Notes under the pieces: model-generated
Database searches by the model: none
What the model was told of the DNA's origin: nothing
What the model saw: only the letters and a program-made list of their open reading frames with translations
In this document: positions 8,628 to 32,824 of the stretch, piece after piece
How positions within the stretch are numbered: position 1 is the stretch's first letter
Layout of the letters: each line of letters opens with the position of its first letter
Source: a bacterium
GTDB lineage: Bacteria; SZUA-182; DTGQ01
Reading direction: 5' to 3'
DNA length: 42,331 nucleotides
NCBI GenBank assembly: GCA_040752695.1
Contig: JBFMGO010000040.1
Coordinates: forward strand, 1 to 42,331
Program-made: the position numbers and the translations under genes

Positions 8628-8695
8628 GTGCTCTTATACAAGAAAAGGTGCTATTACACAAGAGAAGGTGCTGCTATACAAGAGAGTGTGCTTTG
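8628..8695. repeat. 20-bp imperfect tandem repeat x3 spanning the stop codon of the co-polymerase gene
   Basis: gtgctcttatacaagaaaag / gtgctattacacaagagaag / gtgctgctatacaagagagt / gtgctttg. Stop codon at 8674-8676. Confidence 0.85.
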
Positions 8696-10494: not shown

Positions 10495-10534
10495 AGCAGG
10501 TTCTCACAATGATCCTACGCGCGGATTATCCGAA

Positions 10535-10606
10535 GATGTATCCACGATGTACCTGCGATGCACATACGATATACCTGCACCTGCGCTGTACCTGAAATTT
10601 ACCTGC
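10535..10606. repeat. Degenerate 11-bp tandem array (about 6 units) beginning at the stop codon of the PEP-CTERM gene
   Basis: gatgtatccac / gatgtacctgc / gatgcacatac / gatatacctgc / (acctgc) / gctgtacctga / aatttacctgc. Stop codon at 10599-10601. Confidence 0.75.
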
Positions 10607-11177
10607 ATTCTCTTCCGGACCTTTGCATGAATATTGAATTTTCGATAGAGGCATGCCTCAAGAGAAGAAGAATCAAAAGACCCAGGCCGAGAAGAATAAG
10701 GCTTGAGGGGAGAGGAACAATTGTCGTCGTTGTATAGGTATAATACACACCTTCCGGAAGTGCCTGCGAAATCAGCTTGTAGGGAAAGGGGTAGTCGTAG
10801 TTGCCATCTGGATTATCCCAGGAGCCGAGAATGGGATCCTGAATCGTAAAAGGAGTTCCTCCTTCTAATGAAAGCAGCAATCCGGATCTCAGGTACGAAG
10901 GGCTATGATAATTTGTACAATAACCGGCTACACCGCTTGATGTGATGAAAACCTTCCAGTAAGCGTCCTGCTGATCGACCGATAAAGTAACACCAGCCAG
11001 GTTCTCCCCAGCCACGTTTTCCTTTATTATGCTGCATTGAAAACCATTAATTTTCGTAAAGTCAAAGGAATCATCAAACCCGATCTTAACGGTATATGCC
11101 TGGACTGGCAATGCTTTCGACGTAAGGACCAACAGAAGTATTATGGCACAATACCATACTCCTTTTTTCACACTCAT
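10599..11177 (-). CDS. PEP-CTERM (VPLP-type) surface protein, possibly with a cohesin-like beta domain
   Basis: Signal peptide from MSVKK (ATG at 11177 with GAGGAG RBS). C-terminus TTTTTIVPLPSSLILLGLGLLILLLLRH is a VPxP motif, TM segment and weakly basic tail. Confidence 0.8.
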   Translation of the reverse strand: MSVKKGVWYCAIILLLVLTSKALPVQAYTVKIGFDDSFDFTKINGFQCSIIKENVAGENLAGVTLSVDQQDAYWKVFITSSGVAGYCTNYHSPSYLRSGLLLSLEGGTPFTIQDPILGSWDNPDGNYDYPFPYKLISQALPEGVYYTYTTTTIVPLPSSLILLGLGLLILLLLRHASIENSIFMQRSGRECR

Positions 11178-11216
11178 TGGCTTTCTCCTCACTTTTGTTT
11201 TCAAGATCCTTATCTT

Positions 11217-12038
11217 TCACTTCTTCCTTAATTGAGCTTGAATACAGTTGATATCTTGAATAGTGATAATACCGTCATTATTACAATCAACCCATTCATG
11301 TGCATCTTCGCTCTCTTGCGGTTGTCCATTATTGGCTTCGAGGTACTCTTCAACAACAGCAATATCGCCATCTTCAACCGTCCCGTTTCCATCAGCATCA
11401 CCACGCTGTATGATATTGCCGCCCGCCTCCACTGGTTGTCCTATATTCAAGGATCCGAAAGTCACGTACTTATGATCGAGCACTTTCCCTTCATTCGTAA
11501 CAAAATTGACATACTTCCCATCTCTTGCATAGCCGAGCTTCATCAACGAGGAGGAAGGTGGATCCTTTGGATGCTCATTACGCTCGAACTCGACTTTTGC
11601 CAGGAGCACCCTTTCTCCGGTAACTGCTGTCATGTTGGGATCGGTAAGATCAAGCTTTCCTACGATAATAATTACCTCTCCAGGCGTGCTGATCTTATTG
11701 GGATCGACATAGGGGTACTTTCCCTGCACATCTTTCATGAACCATACTTTTTCATTCTTGTGAGCACTTTTGAGGGATAATTGGGCTGGATCGTACTGAA
11801 GTTTCACCCCTGCACTGACCAGTTTGTAAGAATAGGTATTTGCGTAGATACTTATCCCAAGATTATTCTCTGTGTACGCCCCTTCAAGGAATACCTTTAT
11901 TGCTTCCGCTGACCATGCTGATGGTGCCATCATGGTCATTATCACCGTCATTGTCATCGTAATGATGATGCCAAGGCATGACCCCATCAGATAAGTTACC
12001 GGGACTGCACAACTTAACTTTTGTCTGTAGACTCTCAT
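11217..12038 (-). CDS. Secreted cohesin-like plus dockerin-like protein
   Basis: Signal peptide; LVSAGVKLQYDPAQL...VLLAKVEF is a cohesin-type pattern; two EF-hand-like repeats GDADGNGTVEDGD and DCNNDGIITIQD form a dockerin-type C-terminus. Confidence 0.7.
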   Translation of the reverse strand: MRVYRQKLSCAVPVTYLMGSCLGIIITMTMTVIMTMMAPSAWSAEAIKVFLEGAYTENNLGISIYANTYSYKLVSAGVKLQYDPAQLSLKSAHKNEKVWFMKDVQGKYPYVDPNKISTPGEVIIIVGKLDLTDPNMTAVTGERVLLAKVEFERNEHPKDPPSSSLMKLGYARDGKYVNFVTNEGKVLDHKYVTFGSLNIGQPVEAGGNIIQRGDADGNGTVEDGDIAVVEEYLEANNGQPQESEDAHEWVDCNNDGIITIQDINCIQAQLRKK

Positions 12039-12088
12039 CTTTTCTTCTCTTCTTTCTCCCTCTATTCAGGGTCAATGGAAGATCTTCC

Positions 12089-13585
12089 CTAAAAACAGGC
12101 ATTCAAATCGATCTGCAATACATCTACCGCAAGGGGTGGCCCATCGATCTCATCAGCAGTCAGCCAGGTAAAAGACAGCCAGGCATTTTTGGCCACTCCC
12201 AATTGGGCGTTTAAGATCCAGCCCTCGGCATTCGTTCCACCAAGATGAAAATCAGAGTCTGTAAAAGCATCGATCACGGCATCTGCTTCCAGATGCTTGA
12301 GAAAAAAAGAACAATTCCACTGCCACAAGTCTTTTACCTCACGGTGCCCAACGGATACCCCAGCCTGATACCCTTGGGTTTTTTCAGGAATATCCTGACC
12401 GGCTCTCTTCTTATAACCGGTTCTCTCATTTACCTTTTCCTTGTCGAATCCTATATTCTTCACGTAATCTGCCATCAACCGGATAATGACAGGATTAAAG
12501 AACGCGATATCGAAAGAGCCATTGATATCCAGTTGATTATAATCAGAGGCCAGAGCTAATTTTTGCTTGACGCCGGTATCAGTAATTTTTGTGTTAATAT
12601 CAAAAAGAGTATTACCCTTTTGCTGGAAGGCGGGCAGGGTATAGTCTTTCTCGTCATCAGCCTGCAAAGGCTCATTAAACTCACCTTCTATATTCTGGTA
12701 GTCATAATAGGCAACGGCAAGTTTAAATCCGAGAAGCGAGAGCCAATCATATTTTACACCGATCTGACCTCCATAAAAGTATTTATCCTTTGAAGAGAAT
12801 TCCACTTCCTGGAGAGGAAAAATACCGCCAGTGAAAAAGCCGCCTCCATTCCACCTCTTTTCAGCCTGACTTTTTTCGTCACAGGTATCGACAGTCAGGG
12901 CCAGTCCTTCTAAATTGATATCCTTGTCCCAGACAAGATCGGTGGAGTCGAACGGATTCGGTATTCTTCCAAACCAGAGTGCCGTTTTTTGGATTGGCTG
13001 CCACCTAAGGTAAGCTCTGTCAAACACGATGCCGTCTTTATTACAATAATCTCCGAGTGTCTCATTGGTCGAGACAGGCTCTTTTTCGTTGCCGGTCGTC
13101 AGGCGGGTGCCAATATCCATCCGCTCATTGACCTTTGCGATTAAGGATAGCCGCAAACGGATACGGACCCTTTTCCGGTCCTGATGGGTATTCATAATCG
13201 TATCAGGCTCTGATGGTTTCATCAGTTCGGCATTATCCTGAGAAAAGAAATCGCCTTGAAGACGAAAGCGAAAATCTTCGCTCAACTTTACATTCTTCAG
13301 CCACGCCGGTATCTTGCTTGCATTCTGCAAGGTGTTCAACAGGTTCCCTTGATCTACCAGGATCTGTTCTTCCGACAGCATTATCTTTTCTTGTGCATCC
13401 AGCTTGCGTTCGGCATTTTTAAGCCTTTCCAGAATATCTTTTATCTCCTGGGCAGTCAATTCTCCGCTGTCCCCGGTGTCAGAACTCTCTTGCGGTGTAT
13501 CACTGCATAAACCGGCGCTGAAAGAACAAAAAATGCATGTCAAAACGATAATTATTATCAAGCCTCTCTGCTTTCCCATAACCAC
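12089..13585 (-). CDS. Putative porin (Porin_5-like) with an N-terminal coiled coil
   Basis: PAWLKNVKLSEDFRFR, R.RIRLRL, RLTTG...PVSTNETLG, DLVWDKDINLEG, DSDFHLGGTNAEG, and a C-terminal Phe (IDLNACF). Confidence 0.85.
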   Translation of the reverse strand: MVMGKQRGLIIIIVLTCIFCSFSAGLCSDTPQESSDTGDSGELTAQEIKDILERLKNAERKLDAQEKIMLSEEQILVDQGNLLNTLQNASKIPAWLKNVKLSEDFRFRLQGDFFSQDNAELMKPSEPDTIMNTHQDRKRVRIRLRLSLIAKVNERMDIGTRLTTGNEKEPVSTNETLGDYCNKDGIVFDRAYLRWQPIQKTALWFGRIPNPFDSTDLVWDKDINLEGLALTVDTCDEKSQAEKRWNGGGFFTGGIFPLQEVEFSSKDKYFYGGQIGVKYDWLSLLGFKLAVAYYDYQNIEGEFNEPLQADDEKDYTLPAFQQKGNTLFDINTKITDTGVKQKLALASDYNQLDINGSFDIAFFNPVIIRLMADYVKNIGFDKEKVNERTGYKKRAGQDIPEKTQGYQAGVSVGHREVKDLWQWNCSFFLKHLEADAVIDAFTDSDFHLGGTNAEGWILNAQLGVAKNAWLSFTWLTADEIDGPPLAVDVLQIDLNACF

Positions 13586-13615
13586 CTATCCCCATAATTC
13601 CTTTCCGGTAAGATT

Positions 13616-13651
13616 ATCAGCCTCAAGCCTTCCATCAGCCTTAAGCCTTAC
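13616..13651. repeat. 18-bp tandem duplication just downstream of the TpsA stop codon
   Basis: atcagcctcaagccttcc / atcagccttaagccttac. Confidence 0.8.
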
Positions 13652-13660
13652 CTGCCATTT

Positions 13661-16600
13661 TCATTTTCCTGTACTTTTCCCATTCTCTTTCTCTTTATCT
13701 TTTTCTTTCTTGTCTTCCTTCCCTTCATCTTTCTCTTCAAATCCAATTACTTTTACATCTATATCTCCATCGAGGGAGAAAGCCTTCATCGCCTCCTTTA
13801 TCGATGTCATTCTTTTGGCAGCGGTATCCGCCACCGAAGATTCTTCGGTGAGTTTTGTTTGAGGCATCAGATTCCCGGACCCTGTCAAGGCACCGATATT
13901 TGCAGAGCTGTCTCCCACTGATGGAACCCCTGTTGAGCTCCCGGAAAAGCTGATGTTCTGAACGTTCTTATAGCTCTGTGCAGCCATGGCAACATTTCTT
14001 CCTACGATTTCCGCCTCACCGGCATCGATTTCACCTTTCGGTGCATAGAGGAAGACATCTCCTTGATCGGGTGGCCCTTTGGGACCTTCAAGCCCGTCAG
14101 GATCATAGGTTAAGGTACGGATGCCGCTGCCGACTGCGGGAGGCTCAAATTTTATCACGGCTACACCATCAATGATTTCGATCTTTGGCGGTTCGGTATT
14201 TATGGCAGTCTTTGAGCCCCTGCCGGCATTGATGTTTCCAAAATCGCTCCATATCAGAATATCTCCTCCCCTGAAGGTCATGAGCCTGGATTCATTTACA
14301 TTGACATCACTACCGGCAAAGACATTGATCTTTCCGCCTGCAGCGGTATAGATACCAGAATTCTTGAGCTTATTCTCATCAGTGGAAAACGTTGTTCTTC
14401 CTACGTTGACAATGCCCCTGGCTATGATGAAAAGATCTCCTTTTTCTCCACTTGCGTTGATCTGTGAGTCAAACAAATTAATATGACCATCTCCCGGTTT
14501 TTCCGATTGAAAGGTTGGATTGATAAGGTCTCCTCGTATTTTTTCGTTAACGTACTCTTCAGCCGGATCAGCACCTTCCTCATTGAGCAGCCTGCAATAC
14601 TCATCAGCTTTCGGTTTCAATTCGTTAAAAAAGGTATTGATTTTATCATTGTCCATATCAAGGTCATAACCACTGACAACAGCCAGTGAACTCTTTTTCT
14701 GACCAAGTGCAGGATTATAATAGTGCCCCACTGACTGAATTCCTCTGCTGACGCCAAGATCGATGCTGTTTCCAGCCTGAACAAGGAGGAACCCCGGACC
14801 GCCATGCTCGATCCCTGTGACACCATTAACAAGCGACGAGGAACTGAAGGTGATATCCGCTCCTGCCCTGATATGTGAGGTATCTTCTGGCAGAATATTC
14901 TGGCCTTGATACCAGATATCACTGATATTCCGAAAAGCGTCAATTTCCGCCTTTTTCGGTAAAACAAAATTTACATCCCTGATGTCACCACCATCCTCTC
15001 CGTCTTCAAGAGCAGCACCAGCCAGCTTATAGGCGGCACCAGCCTGAATGCTGACAGGAACCGGATCGTCTTCATGAATCGGATTGTCCGCATGTTGTGA
15101 TGGTGAAGTTATCTTGATGGCAATAGTATTTTTATTATCAGGGTGTCTGCCAAACACTTCCCCAGGATCAAGGTCCGAGAGGAGAATTGACGAGCGCTTA
15201 AATTGACCATTGTAATATAATCCATCGATATCTCTTCCGGCCTTCAATACGAGGTTTCCCGTTTTGGAAGGTGCCAGGCAAAAATCGCCGGATAAACGAA
15301 TGTCCCTTTGAGCATACACTTCCAGCGTGGGAGGGAGGATGGTATTTCTTATATTCGAGGGATTTCCAACAAGGTTGCCGATATTACCTGAAATATTCAC
15401 ATCTTCGGTCAGAGCCCTCAGGGTAACTCGTGATTCGGGAGAATAGGTGAGATTCCACTGAGCATCACCGTTAAAACCGTCCCGTACTATGCTGGGATTT
15501 ACTATCGTGCCTAATTTGATATTCCCCTGGGCAATCAGGGACATCTTCGAATCGAAAACTTCCAGGGTGAGATCATCCTGGTTATGGAGGGCACTATTGG
15601 CTCCGATATTCCCCATGGCAGAGTAATATCCCTCCCCCTGCTTTACTAAAAACTTTCCATATATATCTCCGCCTGAAAAGATGGCAACATCACCTGGGCC
15701 AAAAGCCCCGATCTGGCCGAGAAAATCTCCACCTGTTGAGACTCTCAGATTGCCCCCGCCCATAGTTGCCAGTCCCTGAGTAGATTTATCTCTGTCATAG
15801 CTTGCCGACCAGGCAGTTACACCTTCCTTTGGGTCATTATATGCATTATCCCATGATGTTTTATTCAGACGATCACCAATACTTCCACCTACATCGATAT
15901 TTATGTCACCACCATTGGTATACTTCCAATACGAACTTTTTTCAGATTCGGAAGGAGGTTCTCCCACAGTGCGTATCGAGCCAAGAAGATCCGATTTGGA
16001 CAGTTGGCTATAATAGGAAATCAAATGGAGATCCTTCCCGATTTCAATCTGAATGTCTCCCGTTCTGGTCTGGATAGCCCCACCTGTAATTTCCAGCGAA
16101 CCCGTAACCATACCGTGTATCCGGTTATTTTCCGAAGCTATATTAAAGGGAATCTTATTGAAAGGAGTAATTTCTATATCTTGGAACATCACAGAACTTC
16201 TACCGAGACGCCCTATTATGGTATCGTTGCCGGAGGCAAAAGAAATAGGTGCATATTTCGTATAAACTGCCTTTTCGTCTGCTATAATCAGGTTTCCTTT
16301 TCCCTTGATTACAGCCAGAGGATCGGCACTTGCCGAATCCGCACCTGCTGCCAGATTCAATCGCCAGGAGGAATCGCCAGTTATCTTTTTGTCAAAAAGG
16401 TTACCGTTAATGTTCAGATTATCACCTGCCCTCAGGAAAAGCGTTCCTGGTTCCAGGGGAGGAGTTCCTGGTTCTTCATGATACCAGTCGTTGAGATTCC
16501 AGTCTGAAGAAAGGGACAATGAACCATTATCGGATATTTCTATTCCAGGACGAATATGGAGTGTATTATCGTCATCAAGGGACAGGATGCCGTCTGCAAG

Positions 16601-19600
16601 AAGCCTGTCCTTTATACTGGCGGTGTTTACAGTCATAAAGGTTTTCGTATCTGAAGCTATGGCATCGCGATTGATTATCGTGCCATCTTCACTGATAAAG
16701 TCAGCCCCGCCGTACACCTTGACAGGCTCGACAATAACCTCGGAGGCTCCCTGCACCGTTGTCTTTTGCACATTCAGCCGGACCTCTCCTTCCTGGTCCT
16801 GGCGGAGAGCGCGGAAGGTAACTTCTTCTGCGTCAATGAGGACATTTTTTGATTCTGTCCCTTTCAGAATCAAATCCCCTTGAGCTGTACTCAGGATAAC
16901 CTCTCCACCTGGAGTAAAAATTCCAGTTGTTTCATCTCCGGTCTGGTCGATGGCGCTGGCATCCAGGGCAAGATTACCAAGGCTATACAGTTCCACTCTC
17001 CCTGTTTCAGACCCTTCAGAAGGGGCTTTGATTGTGCCAAAAACATCGAGCTTCCCACCATCGGCTACTACCTTAACCGTGTGGGCCATCATCTGTGTAT
17101 CCTCTGGCAGTGTTATATCGCCACTGCGGAAACGAAGGTCGATCGAGTGGTCAAAGCCGCCGCTTTTCACCTTGTCGTTCAGTTGAGAAAGATCGACTTT
17201 ACCTTCCACGATGCCGAATCGGTCTGCATCGAGAATGAATCTGCCACCAAGACCTTTCGTGGTCTCTTCTTCCTCTGTTTCTTTTTCTCCGGCATCTCCT
17301 TTTATATCACCATCGAGAACGACCGTTCCTTTGGGTGCATACAGGCTGAGGGTTCCCGCATCGCCCTGAGCGCCCGCTGAGACATCAATGAGTGTGTTAT
17401 CCGCCATATCTATTTGTCCCACTTCGGTGGAGAGGGAAACCTTTCCTCCAGAAGCATAATCACTTCCCTGAGCTAAAATTTGAGAGTGGTCTTTGAGAAA
17501 AATCCCCTGGCCTTCACCGGAACCATTGCCATGAAGGGTAATCTGACCGCTTTGGACCTCGATAATTCCTTTGTTCAGGATGATATCGTTGGCTGAGATG
17601 TTCAGGGTTCCTCCTGGAACGGTACTCTCACCTTTCGTTCCTTCACTGTTCCCGTTTATGGTTACCTTGCCGGCCGGTGCATTAATCGTGAAGCGGGCGA
17701 CTTCATAAGGCAGATCTTGATTCTGGGGAGAAAGCTTTTTGTCCAGATAAGGAGATGTAGTCACCCGCGCTGCGGTGATATTCAATTCATCTCCCTTGGC
17801 GGTAATAGATCCAATTCCGCTGAGGGTCAGGTTATTTTTGCTCTTGAGATCGATTATCCTGAAACCTTCAAGAAAAATATCTCCATTTCCGATGACGATC
17901 TCTTCAGCATCGAGGGACAGGGTACCGGTATTCGACAGGGTGCTTCCAGTACCTGGAAGGTTGTCGGTGGTATTCAGAAGGCTTATTTTTTTGAGAGGGA
18001 CATAACGAACGGTATCTCCCTCGGTAATTTCCCGACCGGTAATCTTAACGGTGAGTTCATCGGCAGGAAGGTCGGTAATCTCAAGAAGCCCGGTAATCTT
18101 TGGTGTGTCAAGAGTCAGGAAAACATCGCCTAAATGAAATTCAAGTGCTTTTTGAAAAACCAGTTCCGTGCGGCCGGTAAGGATAATATGCGTAAAGCCT
18201 TTGGTAATGCGGTTGAGCTCCTCGGGAGTGAAAGCAAAATCGGTTTCGTTCTGCTGCAAAGAAAGATCAGACACGATTGCAATCCGGTCACTCATCAGGT
18301 TCAGGGTGCTGCTCTTTACCTGAATATTATCTGTACTTGCAACGGTAAGGTTCTGACATTCCAGGTTGAGAGCATGACTTGACTCCAAAAGGGCATCCTT
18401 CGCAATGGTTACCTTCCCCTTTGGGGATATCAGGCTTATATGTCCTTCATTTTCTGGGATGTGTCCTTCAGCATCCTTTTGCGCTTCTGCATTCAGTTGT
18501 GCGCCTGGCTGTACGGTAATTCCCTTCGTTGCAGACAGGGTAAGGTTTGTCCCAAAAAGATGGGCCCCCTCCTGCACCGTGATATACTCGGTCCCCTGAT
18601 ATTCTTCCCCATTCTTCTCAATATGGCCAAGGGAGATTTCCTTGAATCCCTTTGCCGAAAGCGCGCTGACATCGACATACAGTTTATCCTTCAAATCCTC
18701 GGGTATTTGGTCATCGAAGGAAAATTCAGGGAGCAGTGCATTATAGCTTTGCCCGATAAAAATCGTTTTGCCACTCAGTTCGATCAGGTTTCCTTCATAT
18801 GATATCTCTGGATGCTCTGGATCCTGGAAGGGTTTTCCGCTCATGGCTCCTTCCAGAATGGAAGTGTCTCCTTTGATGGAAATCCTGCCGGCATCTCCTG
18901 CTGTCATTTGAAATTGATTGAAATATCCTTCAGCGTCTCCGGCTGTCATTTTTATTTGCATGGTGCTGAGGTTTCCTTCCTGCTTTGCCGTTATCTCCTT
19001 TTCTCCCGTGCTTACCGCGTAAAGGTGCGGAACGTTTTCTGTGTACCCGCTGTCGCGTATGGTCGGAAATCCCCTGGTCACCGGACTTCCTCCATTTGAA
19101 CGCAAAGAGGTATCATAGGCATGATAGACACCAAGATCGGTAATAATCATTGCGCCTGGCAAGAATGCAAATTCCTCGGGCAGAAGTGAATAGACCCCTT
19201 CGGATACTCCTGAAACTCCCTCAAGGTATATGGCCCTTCCCGGCCGCACAATGCTGTTGTCAGGGAAAATGACATATCGCCCTTCCCTTGAAAGAGGATT
19301 TTCCGTACCCTCAATGCCTGGCAAAAACTGATAGGCAAATATCGATCCACCACCATCAACGGAAATCTGTGCACCGGCATCAAGAATAACCTCGGATCCA
19401 TTCAGGGATACTGAATCATGAGGTATCAGAGCTTCCTGGGTCTTATTCGGGTTTGCTTTATCACTCTTATCAGGAATGGTCCATGAGGAAATGGAGAGTT
19501 CTCCATAATTAACCGGGGTTTCCCCCGTTGTGGTTATTTTACTTCCAGCAGCCAGATATATCCGATCTGTTGCCTCACCAGTCTCTTCTGTCTGACAGAG

Positions 19601-23779: not shown

Positions 23780-23791
23780 AAAGAATTTCCT

Positions 23792-25453
23792 TTAGAATTG
23801 ATAGGTTAAATAGAAATAACTCTGTGCCTCGCCCTTTGAAGTCATGTCAGTTTCGTTCAGGGCAACTCCCCAGTCAAATCCATATTGAAAGTGTTTACCA
23901 AAAGTCCCCGCAAGGCCGATACCGACACCCTGAAGAGTAATACCCATATTCTTGCTTTCCACGGTGGTCTCCCGGCTGTCCTCGCTCAACTTGTCGAGCA
24001 CCTGCAGGAATGCTGCATCGTAAAAAGCGTGCACCTTCAGATTATCTGATCTAAAGAAGCCAATCAGCCGGAAAAGGTTGGGGCTTTGAATCTCCGTAGT
24101 GAGATGAACCGCATTATCTCCAAGCTCTTCGCTTTCCTTATACCCCCTGAGGTTATCTATTCCTCCAGCAGGATATTGCTCATTGGAAATCAAAGGCTGG
24201 TTGGCCAGTTGTCCATCCAATTTGAATAACAGGCCGGCACCCTCTGGCAAGGGAAAGGAGCGCTCTACCCGGGCTGTCAGAAAAAAATAATTCCCTCTCG
24301 CCCGATAGCGCTTCTTCTTAAATTCTTCCTTTTCGGTCGAAAGCCCTCGAAAGGCCATATTAAATGAAGTACTCACATTTGTTGAACCGTATGAATCAGG
24401 AAAAGTGGTGCTGTAGGATAGAAAGAGAGGAACATACTGAATGGGAACCGGAGGAGTATCCGTGTCCTCACCTTCTCCGTTTTTCAGGCCAATGTTTTCT
24501 TTAAAATCTTTATAATCGATGCCCAGGCAGATCGTATGCTGCCAGTAGTCTGAAGTATAAAAAGGGATAAAGTATCTAAAGCCGGCAATACTCCCCTTCC
24601 CGAGTATGTGAATCTCCCCGCCTTCCGTGGCTGTCTCACTGTCCGACTTAATATAGTATAAAGACATGGTATGCTCAAACTCCCAGGGAGGTGAAAGGGA
24701 ATAGGAAAAATAAAGGGATTGGACCTCACTCCGATCCTCTGGCGAGGTCTGATATTGAGCTGCTATGGTGTGATCCATCTGCCAGAGATTATCGTAGCGC
24801 AGTGCGCATATGGCCCTTAAATCCGGAGTGGAATGAGTGGAGCGGTTATTCACCTCGAGATTCCCGTGAATGGGAAGCCGGTCTTTTACTTGCAGTTCGA
24901 CATTGATGATATCCAATTCTCTTCCAGGGATCAGGACCGGTTTTACCTGGAGATCCGGATTGCTGCTGATGCGGCCTAATTGCTCCTTGACGCTGGGCAG
25001 ATAAAGAACAGTGCCGGATTGGAAACTGGATAGCTGCCGCATGATTTTCTTTTTGGTAACAAACCGGTTTCCGGTGATGGTCACCTTTCCGACCCTGGAT
25101 TCAATGACCTGGAACCTGACTACTCCATCCTTTATGGTTTGTTCCGGAATATTTACCAGGACTGTAGGATATCCTTTCCGGTGAAAGAAACGTTCCAGCG
25201 CTGCACGTGCCTCCATCACATCTTTTTCCGTTTTCCCTTTTCCTTTATAGAAAGAAACTTCCTGCTCTACCTCCTTATCATCCAAAACGGTATTCCCTTC
25301 AATGATAAATTTTTTGATTTGAAAGGTAACCTCCTCATCCTCCGCTAAAGATCCATCCTCCGCTTCTCCTCTTGCCACAGATATGCCAAAGATCATGAAA
25401 ATTACCAGGAGGAGCAGAGCTTTTTCGGTAATTTCTAATGATTTTCCAAACAA
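23792..25453 (-). CDS. TpsB transporter (ShlB/FhaC/HecB family)
   Basis: POTRA region (IEGNTVL, GYPTVLVNIPEQ...GVVRFQVIE), VRGY-like motif GGIDNLRGY, C-terminal YLTYQF, and adjacency to TpsA. Confidence 0.92.
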   Translation of the reverse strand: MFGKSLEITEKALLLLVIFMIFGISVARGEAEDGSLAEDEEVTFQIKKFIIEGNTVLDDKEVEQEVSFYKGKGKTEKDVMEARAALERFFHRKGYPTVLVNIPEQTIKDGVVRFQVIESRVGKVTITGNRFVTKKKIMRQLSSFQSGTVLYLPSVKEQLGRISSNPDLQVKPVLIPGRELDIINVELQVKDRLPIHGNLEVNNRSTHSTPDLRAICALRYDNLWQMDHTIAAQYQTSPEDRSEVQSLYFSYSLSPPWEFEHTMSLYYIKSDSETATEGGEIHILGKGSIAGFRYFIPFYTSDYWQHTICLGIDYKDFKENIGLKNGEGEDTDTPPVPIQYVPLFLSYSTTFPDSYGSTNVSTSFNMAFRGLSTEKEEFKKKRYRARGNYFFLTARVERSFPLPEGAGLLFKLDGQLANQPLISNEQYPAGGIDNLRGYKESEELGDNAVHLTTEIQSPNLFRLIGFFRSDNLKVHAFYDAAFLQVLDKLSEDSRETTVESKNMGITLQGVGIGLAGTFGKHFQYGFDWGVALNETDMTSKGEAQSYFYLTYQF

Positions 25454-27366
25454 AGATCCAGTTCCTTCCGTAATGAAGGTGCAGTGACAAATTCGTTCAT
25501 TTTTTTGATGATATCCGAATGAGCGTCCATAAGGACAATCAACGGATAACCATCCTGCTGGTAGAGTTCCTTATACTTTTTTTCCTTTTCCGAATTGATT
25601 TTCAGCCAGATAAAGTCATCAGCAAGGGCATTGATAAGAGGATGCGGAAAGGTTTCCTGGAACAATTTCTGACACCACGGACACCAGTCCGCATACAGGA
25701 GAAGTACAACCGGTTTATTTTCCTGTCTGGCAAGAGCGAGTGCCTGGTCATGATCTTCCATCCAGGAGAGTTCTTTTCCCTTGAATTCCGATTCCTTGGT
25801 AAGAGAAACCACTTCAAAATCGATAACAATGTTCTTGCCTGCCAGAGGGTGATTAAAATCGACGGTGAAACTCTCATCATCCGCCTGAGTAATGATTCCT
25901 ACCTTTCCCTCATCAAGCTGGATTGAAGCGCCGATAGTAGGCTGCATGGAAATCACGACATCATTCCCGTCCAGGTAGACTCCGGCTGTTCCAAAGGGGT
26001 CTTCTATCTGCTCTCCATCTTCAACAATAGCTTCGAGCCTGGCATACTGCGGGGTAACTTCGGTTACGTCAGCATCAAAATAGGGAGTCAGGTGAACACG
26101 GTCATGAAGATTGGGAAAGGTTTTAAATTTTTGAACATATTGATCAGCCGGTATTGTCTGTATCTTTGGTATTCTTTTAACTCGTTGTAATTTTTGTATT
26201 TTTTTTTCGTCGCGGGGGATACCGAGCTTGTCGGCAGGAATGGTAATCTTGCCTGTTTGATGAACTACGAAACCGATCAAAGCCTCGGATAATCCAGGAA
26301 TCATATCCAGTTCACCCACGATCATTTCTACAGGAGTGAATTGCTTCGGTTTTTGATAGGCTGCCATTTTTACCCTGCCGGGATCCTGATCGACAGAATC
26401 TTGAGTTGTAAAAAAGACCTGACCATCTTCTAAAGATATAGTATAGTCAATATAAATCAGGTCTCCTTTCTGCACTTTGTTCTTGTCTTCCGGCTGGTTT
26501 TCCCTGCTTTGAGATGTATCCTGGGGAGAAGGATTTGCCAATGCCTTGACCTGACAGGTTAGCTTTTCTCCGCCAAAAGGATGACCGAAATCGACGAGTA
26601 TTGCCTGGTCATTCACATTGCTTATTTTCCCTACAAAAGAACCGGCTCTCACCAGGTCTCCGGCCCTGGCATCAATTTCGATATCGTAATGATCGCCCTT
26701 GTCCCGGATTATTCCCTTTCTGAAGGGAGGAACGGGGACTATGGAATTAGGCTCGGCAAAAAGCCCGGCAGTAATGCTTTCTTCGCCGATAGAGGTAATT
26801 TTCGCTGAAAACAAGGGATCGGGAATCTTCACCTCCTGTCCCACTGTCGGCTCCATGCCCCGGTGGGATTCAATATAAGATGCCTTGCTCATCTTGAGCT
26901 CTTTTGGTCTTCTCCTGACTCTGGTCATAGAGAGAAAGCGGTCTTCTGGTTTGAGATTGGCAGGCACATTTGCATCGAGCTCGAAGCTGTATTCTTTTTC
27001 CACTTCACTTCCAACAATGAATTGGGAGAGTTTGGCTTTAATAACATCATCGATCCCTGTAAGAAAATTATCCTTTGAAATCGGAATCTGCTCACCAGCT
27101 TTGAGGGAAAGATAATTATATACGTTCTGCCGTGCAAAAGCTGATGATTTCGGATAGGAGGCATCATCCTCAGCGATATTTTTCGAAGTGGTTGCGACTA
27201 CTGTGCCATCAGGAAAGCGGCAGGTATAATCCAACCGGATCTGGTCACCATTTTTCACGAGGCTTTGCTTATGAATACCGGTACAACCAAAAAGAGAGGA
27301 GAAAAGGAAGAAAACTATGATGAGCGGAAATGCGAGGATAAAACCTTTTTTTTCTTGTTCTGACAT
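25435..27366 (-). CDS. Lipoprotein with two SlyD-like FKBP PPIase domains and a C-terminal thioredoxin-fold domain
   Basis: Lipobox LFGC; FKBP1 VKNGDQIRLDYT...VDFGHPFGGEKL; FKBP2 VQKGDLIYIDYT...VDFNHPLAGKNIVIDFEV; thioredoxin motif YADWCPWC. Confidence 0.85.
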   Translation of the reverse strand: MSEQEKKGFILAFPLIIVFFLFSSLFGCTGIHKQSLVKNGDQIRLDYTCRFPDGTVVATTSKNIAEDDASYPKSSAFARQNVYNYLSLKAGEQIPISKDNFLTGIDDVIKAKLSQFIVGSEVEKEYSFELDANVPANLKPEDRFLSMTRVRRRPKELKMSKASYIESHRGMEPTVGQEVKIPDPLFSAKITSIGEESITAGLFAEPNSIVPVPPFRKGIIRDKGDHYDIEIDARAGDLVRAGSFVGKISNVNDQAILVDFGHPFGGEKLTCQVKALANPSPQDTSQSRENQPEDKNKVQKGDLIYIDYTISLEDGQVFFTTQDSVDQDPGRVKMAAYQKPKQFTPVEMIVGELDMIPGLSEALIGFVVHQTGKITIPADKLGIPRDEKKIQKLQRVKRIPKIQTIPADQYVQKFKTFPNLHDRVHLTPYFDADVTEVTPQYARLEAIVEDGEQIEDPFGTAGVYLDGNDVVISMQPTIGASIQLDEGKVGIITQADDESFTVDFNHPLAGKNIVIDFEVVSLTKESEFKGKELSWMEDHDQALALARQENKPVVLLLYADWCPWCQKLFQETFPHPLINALADDFIWLKINSEKEKKYKELYQQDGYPLIVLMDAHSDIIKKMNEFVTAPSLRKELDLCLENH

Positions 27367-27412
27367 GCTAAATCTCTCATTGAATGGTTATTTTGTTGAG
27401 GGTTAAAGTATG

Positions 27413-27443
27413 AGGGTCTCTCCTTGCAATAAGGAGAGACCCT
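27413..27443 (-). terminator. Perfect 13-bp stem hairpin, probable terminator or stabilising stem after the PstS-fold gene
   Basis: agggtctctcctt-gcaat-aaggagagaccct, about 45 nt downstream of the stop at 27488. The U-tract is weak. Confidence 0.65.
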
Positions 27444-27487
27444 GCTTGATGAGTACCGACTACTTATAAATTACAGCCTGGGCATTG

Positions 27488-28804
27488 TTATATGCGGCCG
27501 GGATAAGACCAATCGGTCGCTTTTTCGACAGTCATTTCAGTCTTGTTTGCCCAGAAGTTAGCCTTGGAGGCTGGGAGATGACTATCTGCATAGGTGAAGA
27601 ATTGAGCGTGAAGTGCATCAAGAGCTGTATCTTGACCTCTCGTGTAGCACTCATACAACCACTGAGCTGACCAGAAGTCATAGACACCTAAGGCGATGGT
27701 GTATTTGTTGGCAGGTGCACCCTGATAGGTGAGCTGATAGGTAGTTGGATAACTCGTATTCGGGCCGCATCCCTGGTCTGCATCTGCATAACCGACAGCA
27801 GCAGCTATCTCGCCATCATATCCGGCATTCTGCTCGATACATTTCATCATGTCGGAAGAACCATCGTTAAAAAAGGTTGACTCGCTCTCAGATGTGACCA
27901 ATGGCCAGTCTCCACGCATGACTGCTGCATGAAGAGTTGCATGGGTTCCAGACCCTGCATGACGCATACAACGAACGATGTATTTTTCAGGATATATAGA
28001 AGGTTTGACGAAATGTCTGGGCCACCAGATTGGAGGCCATGGAATTGGCCACCAGCAGGGAGGCCAGGGGCAGAAATCGGTCCACATGCTAGCCTGTCCG
28101 GAGAAAATCAATACAGCCTGTAAGCGGGTAAGGTTGGTCACGTTATTGGGGTCATACTCAGTATGAAGAGCCGAAGGATTATAGGCCAGGGCATTGTTGG
28201 CAAAAAAGCCAAAAGGCACAACAAGAGGTCTGTGATAGATCAATCCGGTAGTATCGATCGGCTGTAAATTACGTGTTACCCAGCCGCCACCCAGATGTCC
28301 TTTCAGTTGACCTTCTGAATATTGAGAGAAGGTTTCACCGGCAACGTCTGAGGCGCCAACGGTTACGATACAGCATTTTTTGGGAGTAGTGGCCGGATCG
28401 ATAGTGTGGTCGGCCCAATCTGCTTCCGACACCAGAGACTCGTCTATCATATCACGATATCTTGGACCTGCGCTTGAGCATGAAGGCTGGCCGCCTACTT
28501 CTGGAGGAGGTACTTGACCTTTACAAGCATAAATACCATCATAAGAAGCTTTGGCAGTATAGCGAATGATATACGTATCCGCGCCCTTCGTACCCATGGT
28601 TATACCAAGTTTTCCATCTCCGGTATACTTAATGCCCGTACAACCCACCACATTCTGTAAGAAATCTCTCGCCTGTTCATTCCAGACAAGGTATTGTGCT
28701 GATGCACCGTAAAGGTTAATTTCATAGTTCCGTGCTACGGAAGAGCCAGCCATTGCTGCAATTGCCGCCAGAATAATAAAGATCTGCAAAAATCTTTTAG
28801 ACAT
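27488..28804 (-). CDS. Secreted PstS/DING-like substrate-binding-fold protein
   Basis: Signal peptide; INLYGASAQ, VGASDV, VVPFGFFAN, NLTRLQAVLIFSGQASMWTDF, RHAGSGTHATL and AVGYA match the order of PstS-family motifs. 11 Cys. Confidence 0.7.
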   Translation of the reverse strand: MSKRFLQIFIILAAIAAMAGSSVARNYEINLYGASAQYLVWNEQARDFLQNVVGCTGIKYTGDGKLGITMGTKGADTYIIRYTAKASYDGIYACKGQVPPPEVGGQPSCSSAGPRYRDMIDESLVSEADWADHTIDPATTPKKCCIVTVGASDVAGETFSQYSEGQLKGHLGGGWVTRNLQPIDTTGLIYHRPLVVPFGFFANNALAYNPSALHTEYDPNNVTNLTRLQAVLIFSGQASMWTDFCPWPPCWWPIPWPPIWWPRHFVKPSIYPEKYIVRCMRHAGSGTHATLHAAVMRGDWPLVTSESESTFFNDGSSDMMKCIEQNAGYDGEIAAAVGYADADQGCGPNTSYPTTYQLTYQGAPANKYTIALGVYDFWSAQWLYECYTRGQDTALDALHAQFFTYADSHLPASKANFWANKTEMTVEKATDWSYPGRI

Positions 28805-28926
28805 AATTAAGTCTCCTTGCCACTGATTTGTTACGATACGTTATGTAAGGGACTGAAAATTCCGGAAAAAACCGTGATGAAAAAGCTCAAAGATGAGAAA
28901 ATCTAAAAAAGTATTAAGACCGGACC

Positions 28927-29610
28927 TTATGCACTATGTCTTCTTTTAATACCGACCAGGCCCAGAATACCAGAAGCGAGGAGTAATAATCCGCCGGGAA
29001 TAGGAACAGTGCTGATCTCCATCCGGTAAGGCGTGTCACCCGTAACAAGAACGGGAGCACCTAATCCTACTTTGTGGAACTGATAGAGGTACATTTTACC
29101 AACAAATCCATCTGAAAGGCTGTCTTCACCATCAGAAAAATCTTTGTTGAAGCCAGCATACTGTCCATGTACAGCGTGGCTATCAAATGAATACCAATAT
29201 GAGCTAGGGTTAGAAGTCGAGATTTGAGCGTCACCATCTGCATCCGAATCATTGCTATACCATGCACCTTTAACCGTGCTATTAAAGGCACTCGAAAAGG
29301 TGGTTGTCTTAGTGGTAGAGAATGAAGGAGCAGTGGGACTGGTAGTAGCCCAGTAGTAATCATAGCTACCATCGGTGTTTTTGATATAGCTGAAAAATCC
29401 TGTATAATAACCATCCATGACACCAGGATCCGCAATAGTTTTAACAGCTCCCATACCACTGATAGCACCTAAATCATATCCATACTCAATGCCTTCGACT
29501 TCATTGAAAATAACCTGATAAAGATTTCCTTCTTCCCAATAAGCATTGGCATTACTCATGAGGGCAAATACTAAACATGCAGCAAATAAGATACTGACTA
29601 CTTTCTTCAT
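28927..29610 (-). CDS. PEP-CTERM (VPIP-type) surface protein
   Basis: Signal peptide MKKVVS...ANA (ATG at 29610 with GGAG RBS). C-terminus TVPIPGGLLLLASGILGLVGIKRRHSA. Confidence 0.9.
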   Translation of the reverse strand: MKKVVSILFAACLVFALMSNANAYWEEGNLYQVIFNEVEGIEYGYDLGAISGMGAVKTIADPGVMDGYYTGFFSYIKNTDGSYDYYWATTSPTAPSFSTTKTTTFSSAFNSTVKGAWYSNDSDADGDAQISTSNPSSYWYSFDSHAVHGQYAGFNKDFSDGEDSLSDGFVGKMYLYQFHKVGLGAPVLVTGDTPYRMEISTVPIPGGLLLLASGILGLVGIKRRHSA

Positions 29611-30135
29611 TCGATAGTCTCCATATATGGTACTTGTTATCATCATTATTTTTCAGTGTGATATGCCTTGACTTTGTCAATCTCTTGACCGTTTTTCCCT
29701 CCTTTAATGTCACCCCCTTTCTACAATCATGCCCGCTCTCATTTCTCCTCCCATTCCTCGTCCCCTGACCGCTGTCAGGAGGGGATAGCCAAGAGCGCGC
29801 TGTTGAATATACGGGGCTTCCTGGTCCTTAAAAAAACAAAGAAGTCAGCAAAGTACCCATTTAGGAAAATATTAATTATCATCCATACTCATCATCAATT
29901 TCCGAAGCATTATAAAGTACATTCATTATGAGATTATTATGTCCATATTAATTTCGTATTAATTTAAGTCTTTTCTCGATTCGAAGAAACTTATCGCATG
30001 GATTTTCGGCAACTGGGTCTTTCCTCTGGCAGAGATCTGGTGTTACCGCGCCAAAGGATACCTCGGTCATTTGCGCGAAACGAAGAGCCCTTGCTGCGGC
30101 AGAGGATGGAAAAAGTGTCCTTGTGTAGAGAATAA

Positions 30136-32421
30136 TTATTTCAGGCTGTCGATAAAACAGCCACCTGAACCATTGCCGGAGGAATGGGACTTCGTCGTAA
30201 GAGCAGGGCCACCGATATCGATGATATTTCCATCAGCGACCAGGTCGTCGTCCCCTCTTTCGCCGTCGATAAAATAGAGAGTGATAATATTCCCTTGGAT
30301 TTTGGCTCCGGTTTGACCATCGTATAAAAAGGCATACCAATGAGGATTATCAGGATCATCGGGTGTGGGACCATATTTATAATAGGTATCGGAGGTGATT
30401 TCCGGTGGAAGATAAATGGTCACTGTGGTCGATCCGTCAGTATTTAAACTGCTTAACGAAAAATTGAGCTCAAATAAACCCCAGAGGATAACATCAGAGG
30501 GAGGATTGGGAACATCGCCGAGATCGCTCAGGTCAATGGGTATCATCTCCGGGATCTGGATTAAAGAGGGTGATGCGAGGGTGATGTAATACTGGCCGTT
30601 ACCAATATGCAGAGAAGCGACATTGGGTTGAAGGCAATCCGCAATACCATCTCCATTGCCGTCATAATTCGGGTTATCCCCTTTCGGTCCTTTTTCTTCG
30701 ATATCGGGTACACGGTCTTCATCGGTATCAATATCGTAAATGGAGATGAAGGTTACTGTCACCTCCCGGTCCCTATCCACCGTGACGGTGTTGGTAGTAT
30801 TTTTTATACCGTCATGGTCGGTCCCTTTCCATGATTGTAGCTGATAGCCAGCGTCCGGTGTCGCTTTCAGCGTGACTCTGGTGGTATCCGTATACGTTCC
30901 CGAACTCGGCTCCAGGCTGCCGTTGCCTATTACCCTGCTCGTTAATTGATAGGGCAGCATGGTAAAAGTTGCCTTGACTTTGACCGCCTTGTTACCATCC
31001 GGCTTGACAATCGTTGTATCATCCGTATCGTTCGGGTCATTATCCCAATGATCAAATATCCACCCTGAATAGGGGTGGGCTTTCAGCTCGACCGTATCGC
31101 AACATGCAGGATATTGCTCTACCGTACCTTGCCCATCGATAGTAACTTTTACGATATTGGGATCGATGATGATAAGAGGGGGCTTTTCCAGACACTCGGC
31201 TTTTCCAAAAGATCCTGCGAACTTGGATACATCCAGGTCTTTTATAGAATTTTCGCAATCCTCATAATGAGCCAGATCTCTTCCATCAACATCATCGTCA
31301 TTGTCAAAGTCGCCCCAGCATTTTCCCGTTTCCTTGAAGACAGCGGATATCTCTTTGTCATTATTCATCTTTATGGTAACAGGATTGTTTTGATCCTCCT
31401 GGTACCATCCCCATTCAATAAATCTCCAATCCATGGCTGCGTTCGCTTTGAGCTGGACATCAATATCTTTCATCAGGGTGATTACCGTATCTTTCTTGGC
31501 ACACTCCATGACATCAAACAGGATAACGTTTCCGTCAGCATCAATTTTCGGCAGTATCTTCAGATCATTCGGATCATACCAGGGGATAACGCCCACGGTC
31601 CCCTGACCTTCAATGGTTAATGTTAACGTGACAAAAGGATTTAATACCACGCTGCCGTCTTCATAAAAACGGAGCATGGCAATATAAGGTGTGTGTTTAC
31701 CTTCAATAAATCCGGCTTCCCATGTAGTTTTTAATGGGTTAGATGGATCTGGTATCTTTTTCCCTTCGAATTTGTAGAGATATGCATCTACATAATAACA
31801 GGAATTCGGGTTATTAAAAGCCTCCACACTTATTTCACCTGCACCTTGATCTAATAACCCACCAAGACTTCCCAGTGTTTTTCCAATAAAATTCATATTA
31901 AAGTAATAGGATTTTGGACTTGTTTTAGGTGAGGGGATAGAAACTACATTCCTTTTTCCGTCCTTTCCTTCAAGCATTGTATAACAGCCTGCTACCATAT
32001 TGAAGGCGCTTTCAAAGGTGGTAAGTTGCCTCTCATAGTGAACATCCGGTTTTCCCGTTGAATTTGTTACGAAATAGGCGATATAACAATTGGGTATCCC
32101 CATGGTCTTGTCAGCATAGATCCTTTTGTGAGAGAACATAGCCATACGAAGATCATTCCAGTTATTCTTTGCAAAATATCCAATCCGAAAACCTGCTTCA
32201 GGTTGGATAAGTGTGACGTTTCTGCCTTCCGGGTTGCTGAGATACCAGGATTCGACAGTTCCCAGGTCGACGGCTACTTCTTCATCATTTTCTGTGCCGG
32301 TGATCACTTGGATAAGGTGATCTTGTACGAAGTAGGCAGCCATGGTTTTACTACAGGGAAAAGTGATAGTCATAATTGCTACAACAAAAACGTACGGTAA
32401 CAATTTTATTTTCTTTTTCAT
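30136..32421 (-). CDS. Multidomain surface protein: PEP-CTERM-paralogous N-domain, InlB-B-like repeats, dockerin-like motif, choice-of-anchor-U-like domain, GGCFI tail
   Basis: Three LT..I.G.G.V...V.L.A....W.F..W repeats, GDFDNDDDVDGRDLA, YYKYGPTPDD...HWYAF...ITLYFIDGERGDDD...DGNIIDIGGP, and the end SGNGSGGCFIDSLK. Confidence 0.75.
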   Translation of the reverse strand: MKKKIKLLPYVFVVAIMTITFPCSKTMAAYFVQDHLIQVITGTENDEEVAVDLGTVESWYLSNPEGRNVTLIQPEAGFRIGYFAKNNWNDLRMAMFSHKRIYADKTMGIPNCYIAYFVTNSTGKPDVHYERQLTTFESAFNMVAGCYTMLEGKDGKRNVVSIPSPKTSPKSYYFNMNFIGKTLGSLGGLLDQGAGEISVEAFNNPNSCYYVDAYLYKFEGKKIPDPSNPLKTTWEAGFIEGKHTPYIAMLRFYEDGSVVLNPFVTLTLTIEGQGTVGVIPWYDPNDLKILPKIDADGNVILFDVMECAKKDTVITLMKDIDVQLKANAAMDWRFIEWGWYQEDQNNPVTIKMNNDKEISAVFKETGKCWGDFDNDDDVDGRDLAHYEDCENSIKDLDVSKFAGSFGKAECLEKPPLIIIDPNIVKVTIDGQGTVEQYPACCDTVELKAHPYSGWIFDHWDNDPNDTDDTTIVKPDGNKAVKVKATFTMLPYQLTSRVIGNGSLEPSSGTYTDTTRVTLKATPDAGYQLQSWKGTDHDGIKNTTNTVTVDRDREVTVTFISIYDIDTDEDRVPDIEEKGPKGDNPNYDGNGDGIADCLQPNVASLHIGNGQYYITLASPSLIQIPEMIPIDLSDLGDVPNPPSDVILWGLFELNFSLSSLNTDGSTTVTIYLPPEITSDTYYKYGPTPDDPDNPHWYAFLYDGQTGAKIQGNIITLYFIDGERGDDDLVADGNIIDIGGPALTTKSHSSGNGSGGCFIDSLK

Positions 32422-32473
32422 CTTTTCCTATCCAGTGCTATAGGGGTTAAGGTTTTAATGCTTCTCCCACGAC

Positions 32474-32698: not shown

Positions 32699-32824
32699 AG
32701 TTTAATCCTCCGGAGGCTTTTAAAACAATTTTTAAAACAATCAACAACTCTCATCCATGAAACATTCCCCCTGATCCGTAACACTTTGAAGTAGTAAATT
32801 TTTTTCATTTCATTTCACCCAGGG

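Follow-up and report, generated by a model that had tools for sequence, protein, structure and literature searches.

The window, by which we mean the whole stretch of DNA analysed, is the complete contig G000:C40 (42,331 bp) of the source genome (G000). It carries a two-partner secretion (TPS) gene set in which the genes for TpsB, a giant TpsA exoprotein and a Porin_5 protein follow one another directly, inside a larger run of secreted-protein, foldase and polysaccharide genes. Every sizeable gene of the window lies on the minus strand, including all genes from 32421 to 1, and from 29646 to 732 the genes overlap or are separated by no more than 131 bp. The 23 window proteins were scanned with Pfam and NCBIfam hidden Markov models (HMMs) at E ≤ 0.01. 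An earlier note, made from the letters of the sequence, had proposed that this co-directional run was an undescribed surface-assembly system. The run is real, as its families were confirmed by HMM and by predicted folds and all of its genes share the minus strand. Our survey of related loci further indicated that the gene run is one conserved system, beyond chance neighbourhood, and this structural part of our conclusions is secure. The window holds a variant of that system in which the Porin_5 gene is joined directly to tpsA, and the genes for a dedicated motor and a coiled-coil protein have moved away.

The tpsB gene stopped 12 bp ahead of tpsA, and the Porin_5 gene started 75 bp after tpsA. 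As the note had supposed, TpsA was of the DUF3739 type, with this domain (PF12545) at residues 3171-3286 (106.6 bits, cut-off 27), and its end aligned with 32 other module TpsA ends. The last 300 residues looked like continued beta-helix repeats and closed on a conserved KWL-V-V-IGF (VxVIGF) terminus. The window TpsB shared 32-66% identity with the TpsB proteins encoded beside canonical TpsA genes. Secretion of TpsA through TpsB is predicted from their two-partner (type Vb) domains and the adjacency of their genes. The TpsA open frame measured 3249-3573 amino acids (aa) in 28 of 33 carrier genomes belonging to several phyla; of the outliers, two were longer (3839 and 4115 aa) and three were cut short (222, 832 and 1326 aa). 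TpsA length appeared tight, as if the length of a fibre were constrained.

The Porin_5-like barrel named in the note was confirmed. The model of the protein (pLDDT 76) began with a long helix at residues 43-89, followed by a beta-barrel of porin size, and structurally it came closest to OmpM1, a stalked attachment porin (E 5e-16, TM 0.75 on the target), with the alginate exporter AlgE and general porins next. OmpM1 of Veillonella parvula has, like the Porin_5 model, a barrel preceded by a long helical stalk; it differs in that no SLH domain was detected in the Porin_5 protein, and the two share about 15% sequence identity. No plug domain or TonB-dependent receptor model was matched in the window, and Porin_5 was the sole match of the barrel protein. 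A complex prediction pairing the Porin_5 protein with the last 300 residues of TpsA, with alignments for both, gave a score of 0.01 (mark 0.32), which is evidence neither way.

The 438-aa protein encoded upstream of the foldase had no family match in the Pfam/NCBIfam scan. It had at least 615 relatives, many with PBP_like_2, and a model built from an alignment of 35 relatives reached a pLDDT of 90.4. Foldseek placed only phosphate-binding PstS proteins among the top matches of this model (E 5e-12, TM 0.8 on the target). The family profile also reached PstS chains by sequence (E 4.8e-14), and the RHAGSGT anion loop, invariant across the 35-sequence alignment, aligned to the RAAGSGS/RAQGSGT loop of PstS chains with solved structure. 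Model, Foldseek and profile search thus agreed with the PstS-fold secreted protein of the note. By its modelled fold and its sequence, the 438-aa protein is a PstS-type binding protein with a type II periplasmic binding fold and an RxxGSGT loop. No PstCAB component or any other ABC transporter family was matched among the window proteins. A homologue was found in 20 of 34 carrier genomes, always in single copy and always on the contig of the DUF3739 gene, 7-18 kb away; the 14 carriers without one were mostly Beta- and Gammaproteobacteria.

In the canonical arrangement of the module, the order was TpsA - ExbB - ExbD - TonB - Porin_5 - coiled-coil protein, with a peptidyl-prolyl isomerase (PPIase) following in some loci, and this order was carried by Desulfobacterota, Geobacter, Nitrospirota, Thiobacillus, Hydrogenophaga and Gammaproteobacteria. 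According to Pfam matches at representative loci, the dedicated ExbB of the module is a fusion of about 600 aa that joins DUF2341, a lectin-like Laminin_G_3 domain and MotA_ExbB, and the module TonB is of the TonB_2 type. In the post-porin protein of about 225 aa, a hydrophobic segment lies at the N-terminus, a long stretch resembles a coiled coil, and the C-terminus bears a conserved motif. In the window, neither the dedicated ExbB nor ExbD or TonB_2 occurred in the 75-bp gap between tpsA and the Porin_5 gene, and no coiled-coil protein stood at the position after the porin.

The source genome has the motor trio on another contig (G000:C36:5494-8621; with the coiled-coil partner, G000:C36:4419-8621). 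The ExbB encoded there shared 44% identity and the same three domains with a dedicated ExbB from Desulfosarcina, and the 261-aa coiled-coil protein after its TonB_2 matched six proteins of the post-porin family by blastp (E 4e-12 to 1.7e-25). Next to these genes lay a response regulator (G000:C36:3716-4531) whose best model was PhoB, at 251 bits, below the equivalog cut-off of 296. In a genome of the same genus (G002, the congener), the four motor and coiled-coil genes shared the contig of the porin and lay 36 kb downstream of it, with polysaccharide genes and an exosortase between. The motor was likewise displaced from TpsA and porin in G008, a 16.6-kb contig from a member of the same order. 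As the source genome encodes five further ordinary ExbB-like proteins, the dedicated ExbB represents an extra, specialised motor. The note had described a unit lacking ExbB-ExbD and TonB; the trio instead belongs to the conserved core, displaced here to contig C36.

The note had also found no such genes nearby, overlooking an ExbD and a TonB-like protein of divergent type at the contig end. This pair (39784-42087) was considered as the module motor and rejected: it had no tblastn match to module ExbD or TonB_2 (E ≤ 1e-4), its TonB-like member has an AgmX/PglI-type end, and in the congener the 15.7 kb upstream of the module did not contain the pair. An ExbB/TolQ partner gene for the pair may lie past the contig end.

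Conservation of the module was assessed in a Porin_5 survey, in which a 24-sequence alignment led to 579 confirmed relatives in species-representative genomes, of which the best 80 loci were kept. The loci were searched by tblastn with the window proteins (E ≤ 1e-6) and with proteins from representative loci (E ≤ 1e-4). Among 51 loci with at least 7.5 kb upstream of the porin, a DUF3739-type TpsA end was present in 48, the dedicated ExbB in 49, ExbD in 49 and TonB in 48. Where at least 4 kb was available upstream, the dedicated ExbB was found in 53 of 55 loci, the exceptions being G008 and a Syntrophobacteraceae locus (L038). Downstream (62 loci with at least 2.5 kb), the protein of about 225 aa occurred in 42, a PpiC/SurA-like PPIase in 13, and one or both in 50. 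The three loci without a TpsA end were one from NC10 (L020), in a genome without any DUF3739, the rearranged L038, and one with a shorter TPS-domain protein upstream (L069).

Exactly one DUF3739 match was found in 33 of 34 carrier genomes. Among 41 relatives of the source genome, DUF3739, a full-length Porin_5 protein and a DUF2341-ExbB protein of about 600 aa co-occurred in the same three genomes (G000, G002 and G008), and the other Porin_5 or DUF2341 matches were partial or fell in very large proteins. In an even sample of 201 Desulfobacterota genomes, DUF3739 was present in five, which included all four genomes with full-length Porin_5 (E ≤ 1e-128). A second, shorter Porin_5 subfamily, with weaker partial matches in proteins of about 360-580 aa and unlinked to DUF3739, was seen in 21 of the 201 genomes, with up to four or five separate frames per genome. 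The TPS module is widespread across distant taxa, with a reduced form in Beta- and Gammaproteobacteria and on plasmids.

The window arrangement itself recurred in near relatives. In the congener, the order from the PrsT-like gene to the GT4 gene was fully kept at 40-76% protein identity, and in G008 the order FKBP-thioredoxin, TpsB, TpsA, Porin_5 and dockerin protein was kept. Further away, in two Desulfosarcina genomes and in Geobacter argillaceus, the genes upstream of TpsA encoded a PEP-CTERM-type protein of the same family as the 239-aa window protein, a PstS-like protein, FKBP, FKBP-thioredoxin and TpsB. This set was co-directional and in window order in the two Desulfosarcina loci and was spread over both strands in G. 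argillaceus. In D. alkanivorans, it was preceded by a large protein starting with the domain of the 239-aa family. Two Betaproteobacteria had TpsB alone upstream of TpsA. Recurrence in the congener, Desulfobacterota, Geobacter and Nitrospirota bore out the proposal of a conserved unit of TpsA, porin, periplasmic binding protein and foldase.

The 643-aa foldase corresponds to a fusion of two adjacent genes, encoding FKBP and FKBP-thioredoxin, that are separate in Desulfosarcina and Geobacter (for example, L093:6374-8645). FKBP-thioredoxin was found in 12 of 34 carriers, in the module locus every time. A fused FKBP-FKBP-thioredoxin (646 aa) was also seen in one other carrier (G074).

The secreted 761-aa and 239-aa proteins have a common N-terminal domain; their direct match was weak (E 0.003), and intermediates matched both (E 5e-14 and 2e-10). 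The note had called PEP-CTERM proteins here: the tails are present, with scores just below the cut-offs in the window (Table 1), and homologues elsewhere pass. One homologue of the 239-aa protein (L093:10195-10917) reached 28.8 bits for VPLPA-CTERM, above 25.35, and another (L009:14328-15077) reached 21.6 bits for PEP-CTERM, above 20.7. The 239-aa family also showed a weak match to the floc protein PepA. The cohesin-dockerin protein of the note stood in part: the dockerin of the 273-aa protein was matched, and no cohesin model matched at E ≤ 0.01. The dockerin gene was retained after the porin in G002 and G008, and the 201-aa PEP-CTERM-like protein was retained in G002. We considered whether the dockerin protein is the counterpart of the post-porin coiled-coil protein and rejected this, as G008 has both side by side with no blastp similarity.

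Table 1. Genes and gene groups of the window, listed in the direction of transcription; bit scores and cut-offs are those of the HMM scan
Feature	Coordinates	Strand	Evidence
ExbD	41557-42087	-	HMM; contig end
TonB-like protein, 588 aa, AgmX/PglI-type (GltG/GltJ-like) C-terminal domain	39784-41550	-	HMM
Big_1/Invasin_D3 protein (589 aa), YjbQ-family protein, small fn3 protein	35775-39221	-	HMM
PrsT-like TPR protein, 818 aa	32825-35281	-	TIGR02917 292 bits, below cut-off 312
Secreted protein, 761 aa: module-specific N-terminal domain, two Flg_new_2, choice-of-anchor U	30136-32421	-	Anchor U 53.7 bits, cut-off 32
Small protein, 239 aa, VPIP + hydrophobic + basic tail	28927-29646	-	VPLPA/PEP-CTERM-like 20.4, below cut-off 25.35
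PstS-fold (PBP_like_2) secreted binding protein, 438 aa	27488-28804	-	Model, Foldseek, profile search
FKBP-FKBP-thioredoxin foldase, 643 aa	25435-27366	-	FKBP_C + Thioredoxin_7
TpsB outer-membrane transporter	23792-25453	-	POTRA_2 (PF08479) 58.7 bits + ShlB (PF03865) 54.1 bits
TpsA giant exoprotein, 3372 aa	13661-23779	-	TPS domain PF05860 92.1 bits (cut-off 33.5), TIGR01901 83.4 bits; DUF3739
Porin_5 protein, 498 aa	12089-13585	-	Porin_5 E 3.6e-123
Small secreted protein, 273 aa, C-terminal dockerin	11217-12038	-	Dockerin_1 30.2 bits
Small protein, 201 aa, VPLP + hydrophobic + basic tail	10599-11204	-	PEP-CTERM 19.2, just below cut-off 20.7
XrtA-type polysaccharide genes	1-10494	-	HMM

The polysaccharide part of the window comprised two chain-length determinant/tyrosine kinase pairs, a second PrsT-like TPR protein, OPX, an outer-membrane protein and the start of a GT4 gene. 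The chain-length determinant at 8674-10494 scored 294.5 bits with TIGR03007, above the cut-off of 278.85, and the second copy scored 264.2, below it. The other best models all fell below their cut-offs: PrsT at 292 and 284 (312), the XrtA-associated tyrosine kinase at 169 and 193 (231), and the exporter at 144 (180). The duplicated chain-length/kinase pairs (732-10494) and the duplicated PrsT-like TPR proteins were both retained in the congener. Homologues of the genes at 35775-39221 were not found in the 15.7 kb upstream of the module there. Scans for promoters and terminators covered 1-14000 and 27000-42331 and were uninformative, as the number of sites was close to that in shuffled sequence; within these two regions, none of the minus-strand terminator-like sites lay in an intergenic gap of the module. 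A search for RNA sequencing runs containing window positions 10500-20400 listed none.

The link to exosortases and polysaccharide export that the note had seen at this one locus proved recurrent. Exosortase-family genes were present in 31 of 34 carriers and, among the 41 relatives, in 16, including all three carriers. In 17 of 33 genomes, many of them fragmented assemblies, DUF3739 shared its contig with a strong exosortase match no more than 55 kb away. The HMM scan found no exosortase in the window, and the PF09721 matches of the source genome, three strong and one weak, were all on other contigs. Inside the module, an XrtH-like exosortase gene was found in the ExbD/TonB interval of D. alkanivorans and beside TpsB in G. 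argillaceus. With TIGR04177 (cut-off 86), these genes (L030:7676-8686 and L095:6360-7352, both on the plus strand) scored 85.6 and 80 bits; for the exosortase signature TIGR04178, the score exceeded the cut-off. PEP-CTERM open reading frames occurred inside the module in Thiobacillus and Deltaproteobacteria. The second rearranged copy, in Syntrophobacteraceae (L038), followed directly after chain-length, kinase and PrsT-like genes.

Two plasmids carried related gene sets. On a Klebsiella pneumoniae plasmid from a clinical isolate (L099, NZ_CP065459.1, 1-13800), the module read TpsA end (DUF3739-like), TpsB, the dedicated ExbB, ExbD, TonB, Porin_5, a hypothetical protein, YbjN, PPIase, a hypothetical protein and LysR. 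The TpsB match there consisted of two adjoining pieces, and the gene may be interrupted; the gene table of the plasmid, which is known to be incomplete, lists no gene for TpsB or the TpsA end. On a Methylomagnum plasmid, genes for a substrate-binding protein, TpsB and TpsA were divergent from porin, cax and phoU.

The closest published counterpart was the pdtA-PA0699 cluster of Pseudomonas aeruginosa (sigma-VreI/PUMA3), which likewise has a giant TpsA, TpsB, a private ExbB-ExbD-TonB, a putative porin, a small secreted protein and a PPIase. Extracts of PMC7035377 list pdtA, phdA, pdtB, exbB2, exbD2, tonB4, PA0696 (putative porin), PA0697, PA0698 (YbjN), PA0699 (PpiC PPIase) and PA0701 (LysR), and describe the TonB system as uncharacterised and the function of PA0696-PA0700 as unknown. 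The Klebsiella plasmid copy equals this list gene for gene. The resemblance to the published pdtA region claimed in the note holds. From this colinearity with the published gene list, we infer that the P. aeruginosa cluster probably belongs to the DUF3739/Porin_5/DUF2341 module. The lack of DUF3739 and Porin_5 matches in 14 control genomes was considered as an argument against this membership and rejected, as the controls were uninformative. P. aeruginosa has many OprD-family porins, and it was evidently not among these controls, because the OprD family was matched only in E. coli there. The locus described here differs from the P. aeruginosa cluster in that TpsA and porin are separated from the motor trio and coiled-coil gene, FKBP-thioredoxin takes the place of PpiC as foldase, PstS-like and PEP-CTERM-type genes lie inside the module with an XrtA polysaccharide locus around it, and neither the Hxc type II system nor VreAIR genes are present. 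A secreted PstS/DING-type protein is presumably a partner in P. aeruginosa as well.

As far as the published extracts go, the P. aeruginosa cluster is induced by phosphate starvation via PhoB and VreI and adjoins the secreted phosphatase LapA. The pdtA region is also on during infection, being induced by contact with human cells and in zebrafish embryos, and PdtA aids virulence in a nematode model. As early as 2009, homologues of the TPS, ExbBD and PA0696 genes were noted travelling together in several proteobacteria (PMC2729926). The claim of an undescribed system thus held for function, which is still unexplained in print, and failed for the gene association. In the literature searched on DUF3739, DUF2341, Porin_5 and PEP-CTERM/exosortase combinations, no description of the module was found, and the extracts of that literature mention DUF2341 on ExbB-like proteins solely as an unexplained appendage.

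Two other kinds of system share features with the module. In HxuABC of Haemophilus influenzae, as a review outlines, a TPS pair is likewise coupled both genetically and functionally to an outer-membrane protein energised by a Ton system, the purpose being to capture an external ligand. HxuABC differs in the small size of its HxuA and in having, as HxuC, a TonB-dependent transporter with a plug, whereas the present module has a plugless stalked Porin_5, a TpsA of about 3300 residues and a lectin-like ExbB. The XrtA/PEP-CTERM exopolysaccharide (EPS) systems of the EpsH/PrsT/PrsK-PrsR type have in common with the window a chain-length determinant above its cut-off; PrsT, kinase and exporter models were best matches in the window with scores below their cut-offs, and the floc protein PepA is weakly similar to small module proteins with PEP/VPLPA-CTERM-like tails. 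They differ in the position of the exosortase, which here lies outside the window on other contigs. In the literature searched, no description was found of a TPS pair, a Porin_5 protein or a Ton motor as part of XrtA/PEP-CTERM systems.

Our reading is that the locus, a locally rearranged copy of a widespread TPS-centred envelope system, may serve as a motor-assisted surface-fibre and matrix apparatus, and we hold it with about even confidence. The likeliest role appeared to be a fibre-plus-matrix surface structure, because the module is embedded here in an XrtA polysaccharide locus and many carriers have it close to exosortases. In such an apparatus, TpsB would thread the beta-helical TpsA of about 3300 residues to the cell surface, while the lipoprotein-like FKBP-thioredoxin, or a PpiC/SurA-like protein elsewhere, would hold TpsA or the barrels in a competent periplasmic state. 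TpsA would remain at the envelope by its conserved DUF3739 end. A trans-envelope station could be formed there by the proton-driven motor of dedicated ExbB, ExbD and TonB, together with the coiled-coil protein and the stalked Porin_5, and would serve to anchor, gate or remodel the fibre. As accessory cargo or decorations, the system would carry the PstS-like and PEP-CTERM-type proteins. Together with exosortase-sorted proteins and exopolysaccharide, the fibre might then form a floc or biofilm scaffold.

Several observations weigh against this reading. Of 46 loci with sufficient DNA, only 7 had detected EPS-type genes in the 10 kb downstream, and the Klebsiella plasmid copy and, by colinearity, the P. 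aeruginosa cluster stand in contexts showing no exosortase genes. With few loci carrying EPS genes and these exosortase-free contexts, the building of a matrix with exosortase cargo is not a universal role of the module. The physical parts that this reading assigns to Porin_5, coiled-coil protein and motor are hypothetical. Finally, the PstS-type protein with its intact anion loop, the Ton-type motor, the PhoB-like regulator, the plasmid phoU and the phosphate-starvation control in P. aeruginosa all point towards nutrient capture.

The strongest alternative is capture of a nutrient, which would most likely be phosphate or a comparable oxyanion; we regard it as possible, with clearly less confidence than the fibre-and-matrix reading. 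Several observations accord with it about as well as with the protein-polysaccharide layer that the note had suggested. Following the logic of HxuABC, where a TpsA works with a TonB-dependent importer, the fibre and exoproteins would harvest the ligand, a motor-gated Porin_5 would admit the ligand or a loaded carrier, and the PstS-like protein would receive it. The PstS fold speaks for such a role, as does its loop, which aligns to that of solved phosphate-binding proteins and is invariant in 35 homologues; so does the presence of its gene as a single copy, always in the module, in the 20 genomes that have one. A dedicated Ton-type motor in the module, a regulator beside the motor genes best matched by PhoB, and phoU beside the porin on the Methylomagnum plasmid are in keeping with capture. 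The same is true of the P. aeruginosa cluster, with its reported induction through PhoB and VreI and its neighbour LapA in the extracts cited above, and precedents exist in HxuCBA and in the PEP-CTERM zinc-uptake exoprotein ZepA. However, Porin_5 has no plug and no TonB-dependent receptor model was matched, pstCAB or other ABC transporter genes were not found in the window, and 14 of 34 carriers do without the PstS-like gene. A fibre of near-constant length, about 3300 residues, is not obviously required for uptake, and the strong exosortase and EPS linkage would be left unexplained.

The two readings could be merged, a combination that we consider doubtful and place well below nutrient capture. 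The motor, stalked porin and coiled-coil protein would hold or power a TpsA fibre of fixed length that shows PstS-like and exosortase-sorted proteins past the polysaccharide, giving a phosphate-scavenging appendage. PstS/DING-bearing appendages have been reported in phosphate-starved P. aeruginosa (PMC3949141, PMC2242829); if the merged reading were true, the module would be their scaffold.

It is less likely still that the neighbouring systems are independent, with an ordinary adhesin-type TPS operon and its private helpers having landed in a polysaccharide locus, uncoupled from the PEP-CTERM and EPS genes. The module is indeed patchy and mobile (5 of 201 Desulfobacterota genomes; plasmids), and 39 of 46 canonical loci had no EPS-type genes within 10 kb. 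Chance landing does not account well for the same embedding in a congener at 40-76% protein identity, nor for the L038 copy beside chain-length, kinase and PrsT genes. The presence of exosortases in 31 of 34 carriers and in 16 of 41 relatives including all three carriers, the strong matches within 55 kb in 17 of 33, and the exosortase-like genes and PEP-CTERM cargo inside the module likewise argue for a coupling. Contact-dependent inhibition (CDI) or toxin delivery of the CdiA/CdiB kind, for which the giant TpsA with its TpsB and the immunity-family genes Imm11 and Imm49 at the start of contig C36 might speak, is very improbable, as no toxin, pre-toxin or immunity family was matched in TpsA or its neighbours (Pfam/NCBIfam, E ≤ 0.01), the C-terminal 300 residues of TpsA are conserved across 33 taxa, unlike the variable ends of CDI toxins, and a porin stands downstream instead of a small immunity gene.

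Two-partner secretion is taught as a two-protein pathway. Our survey indicated that this TPS pair travels with up to ten fixed partners in at least five bacterial lineages and on plasmids, among them its own Ton-type motor, a stalked porin, a coiled-coil protein, a PstS-like protein without a transporter, foldases and exosortase cargo. The association of TPS, ExbBD and PA0696 genes was already known; the split variant and the parts list are new here. The pdtA region of P. aeruginosa is the single studied representative of the family, and its accessory genes are still listed without known function. A defined parts list of the module is now available, along with natural split variants such as the window locus and the cultured carriers Desulfosarcina alkanivorans, Geobacter argillaceus, Thiobacillus denitrificans and Hydrogenophaga sp. 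It has thereby become testable what use a Ton motor is to a secreted fibre, and whether exosortase systems employ such fibres.

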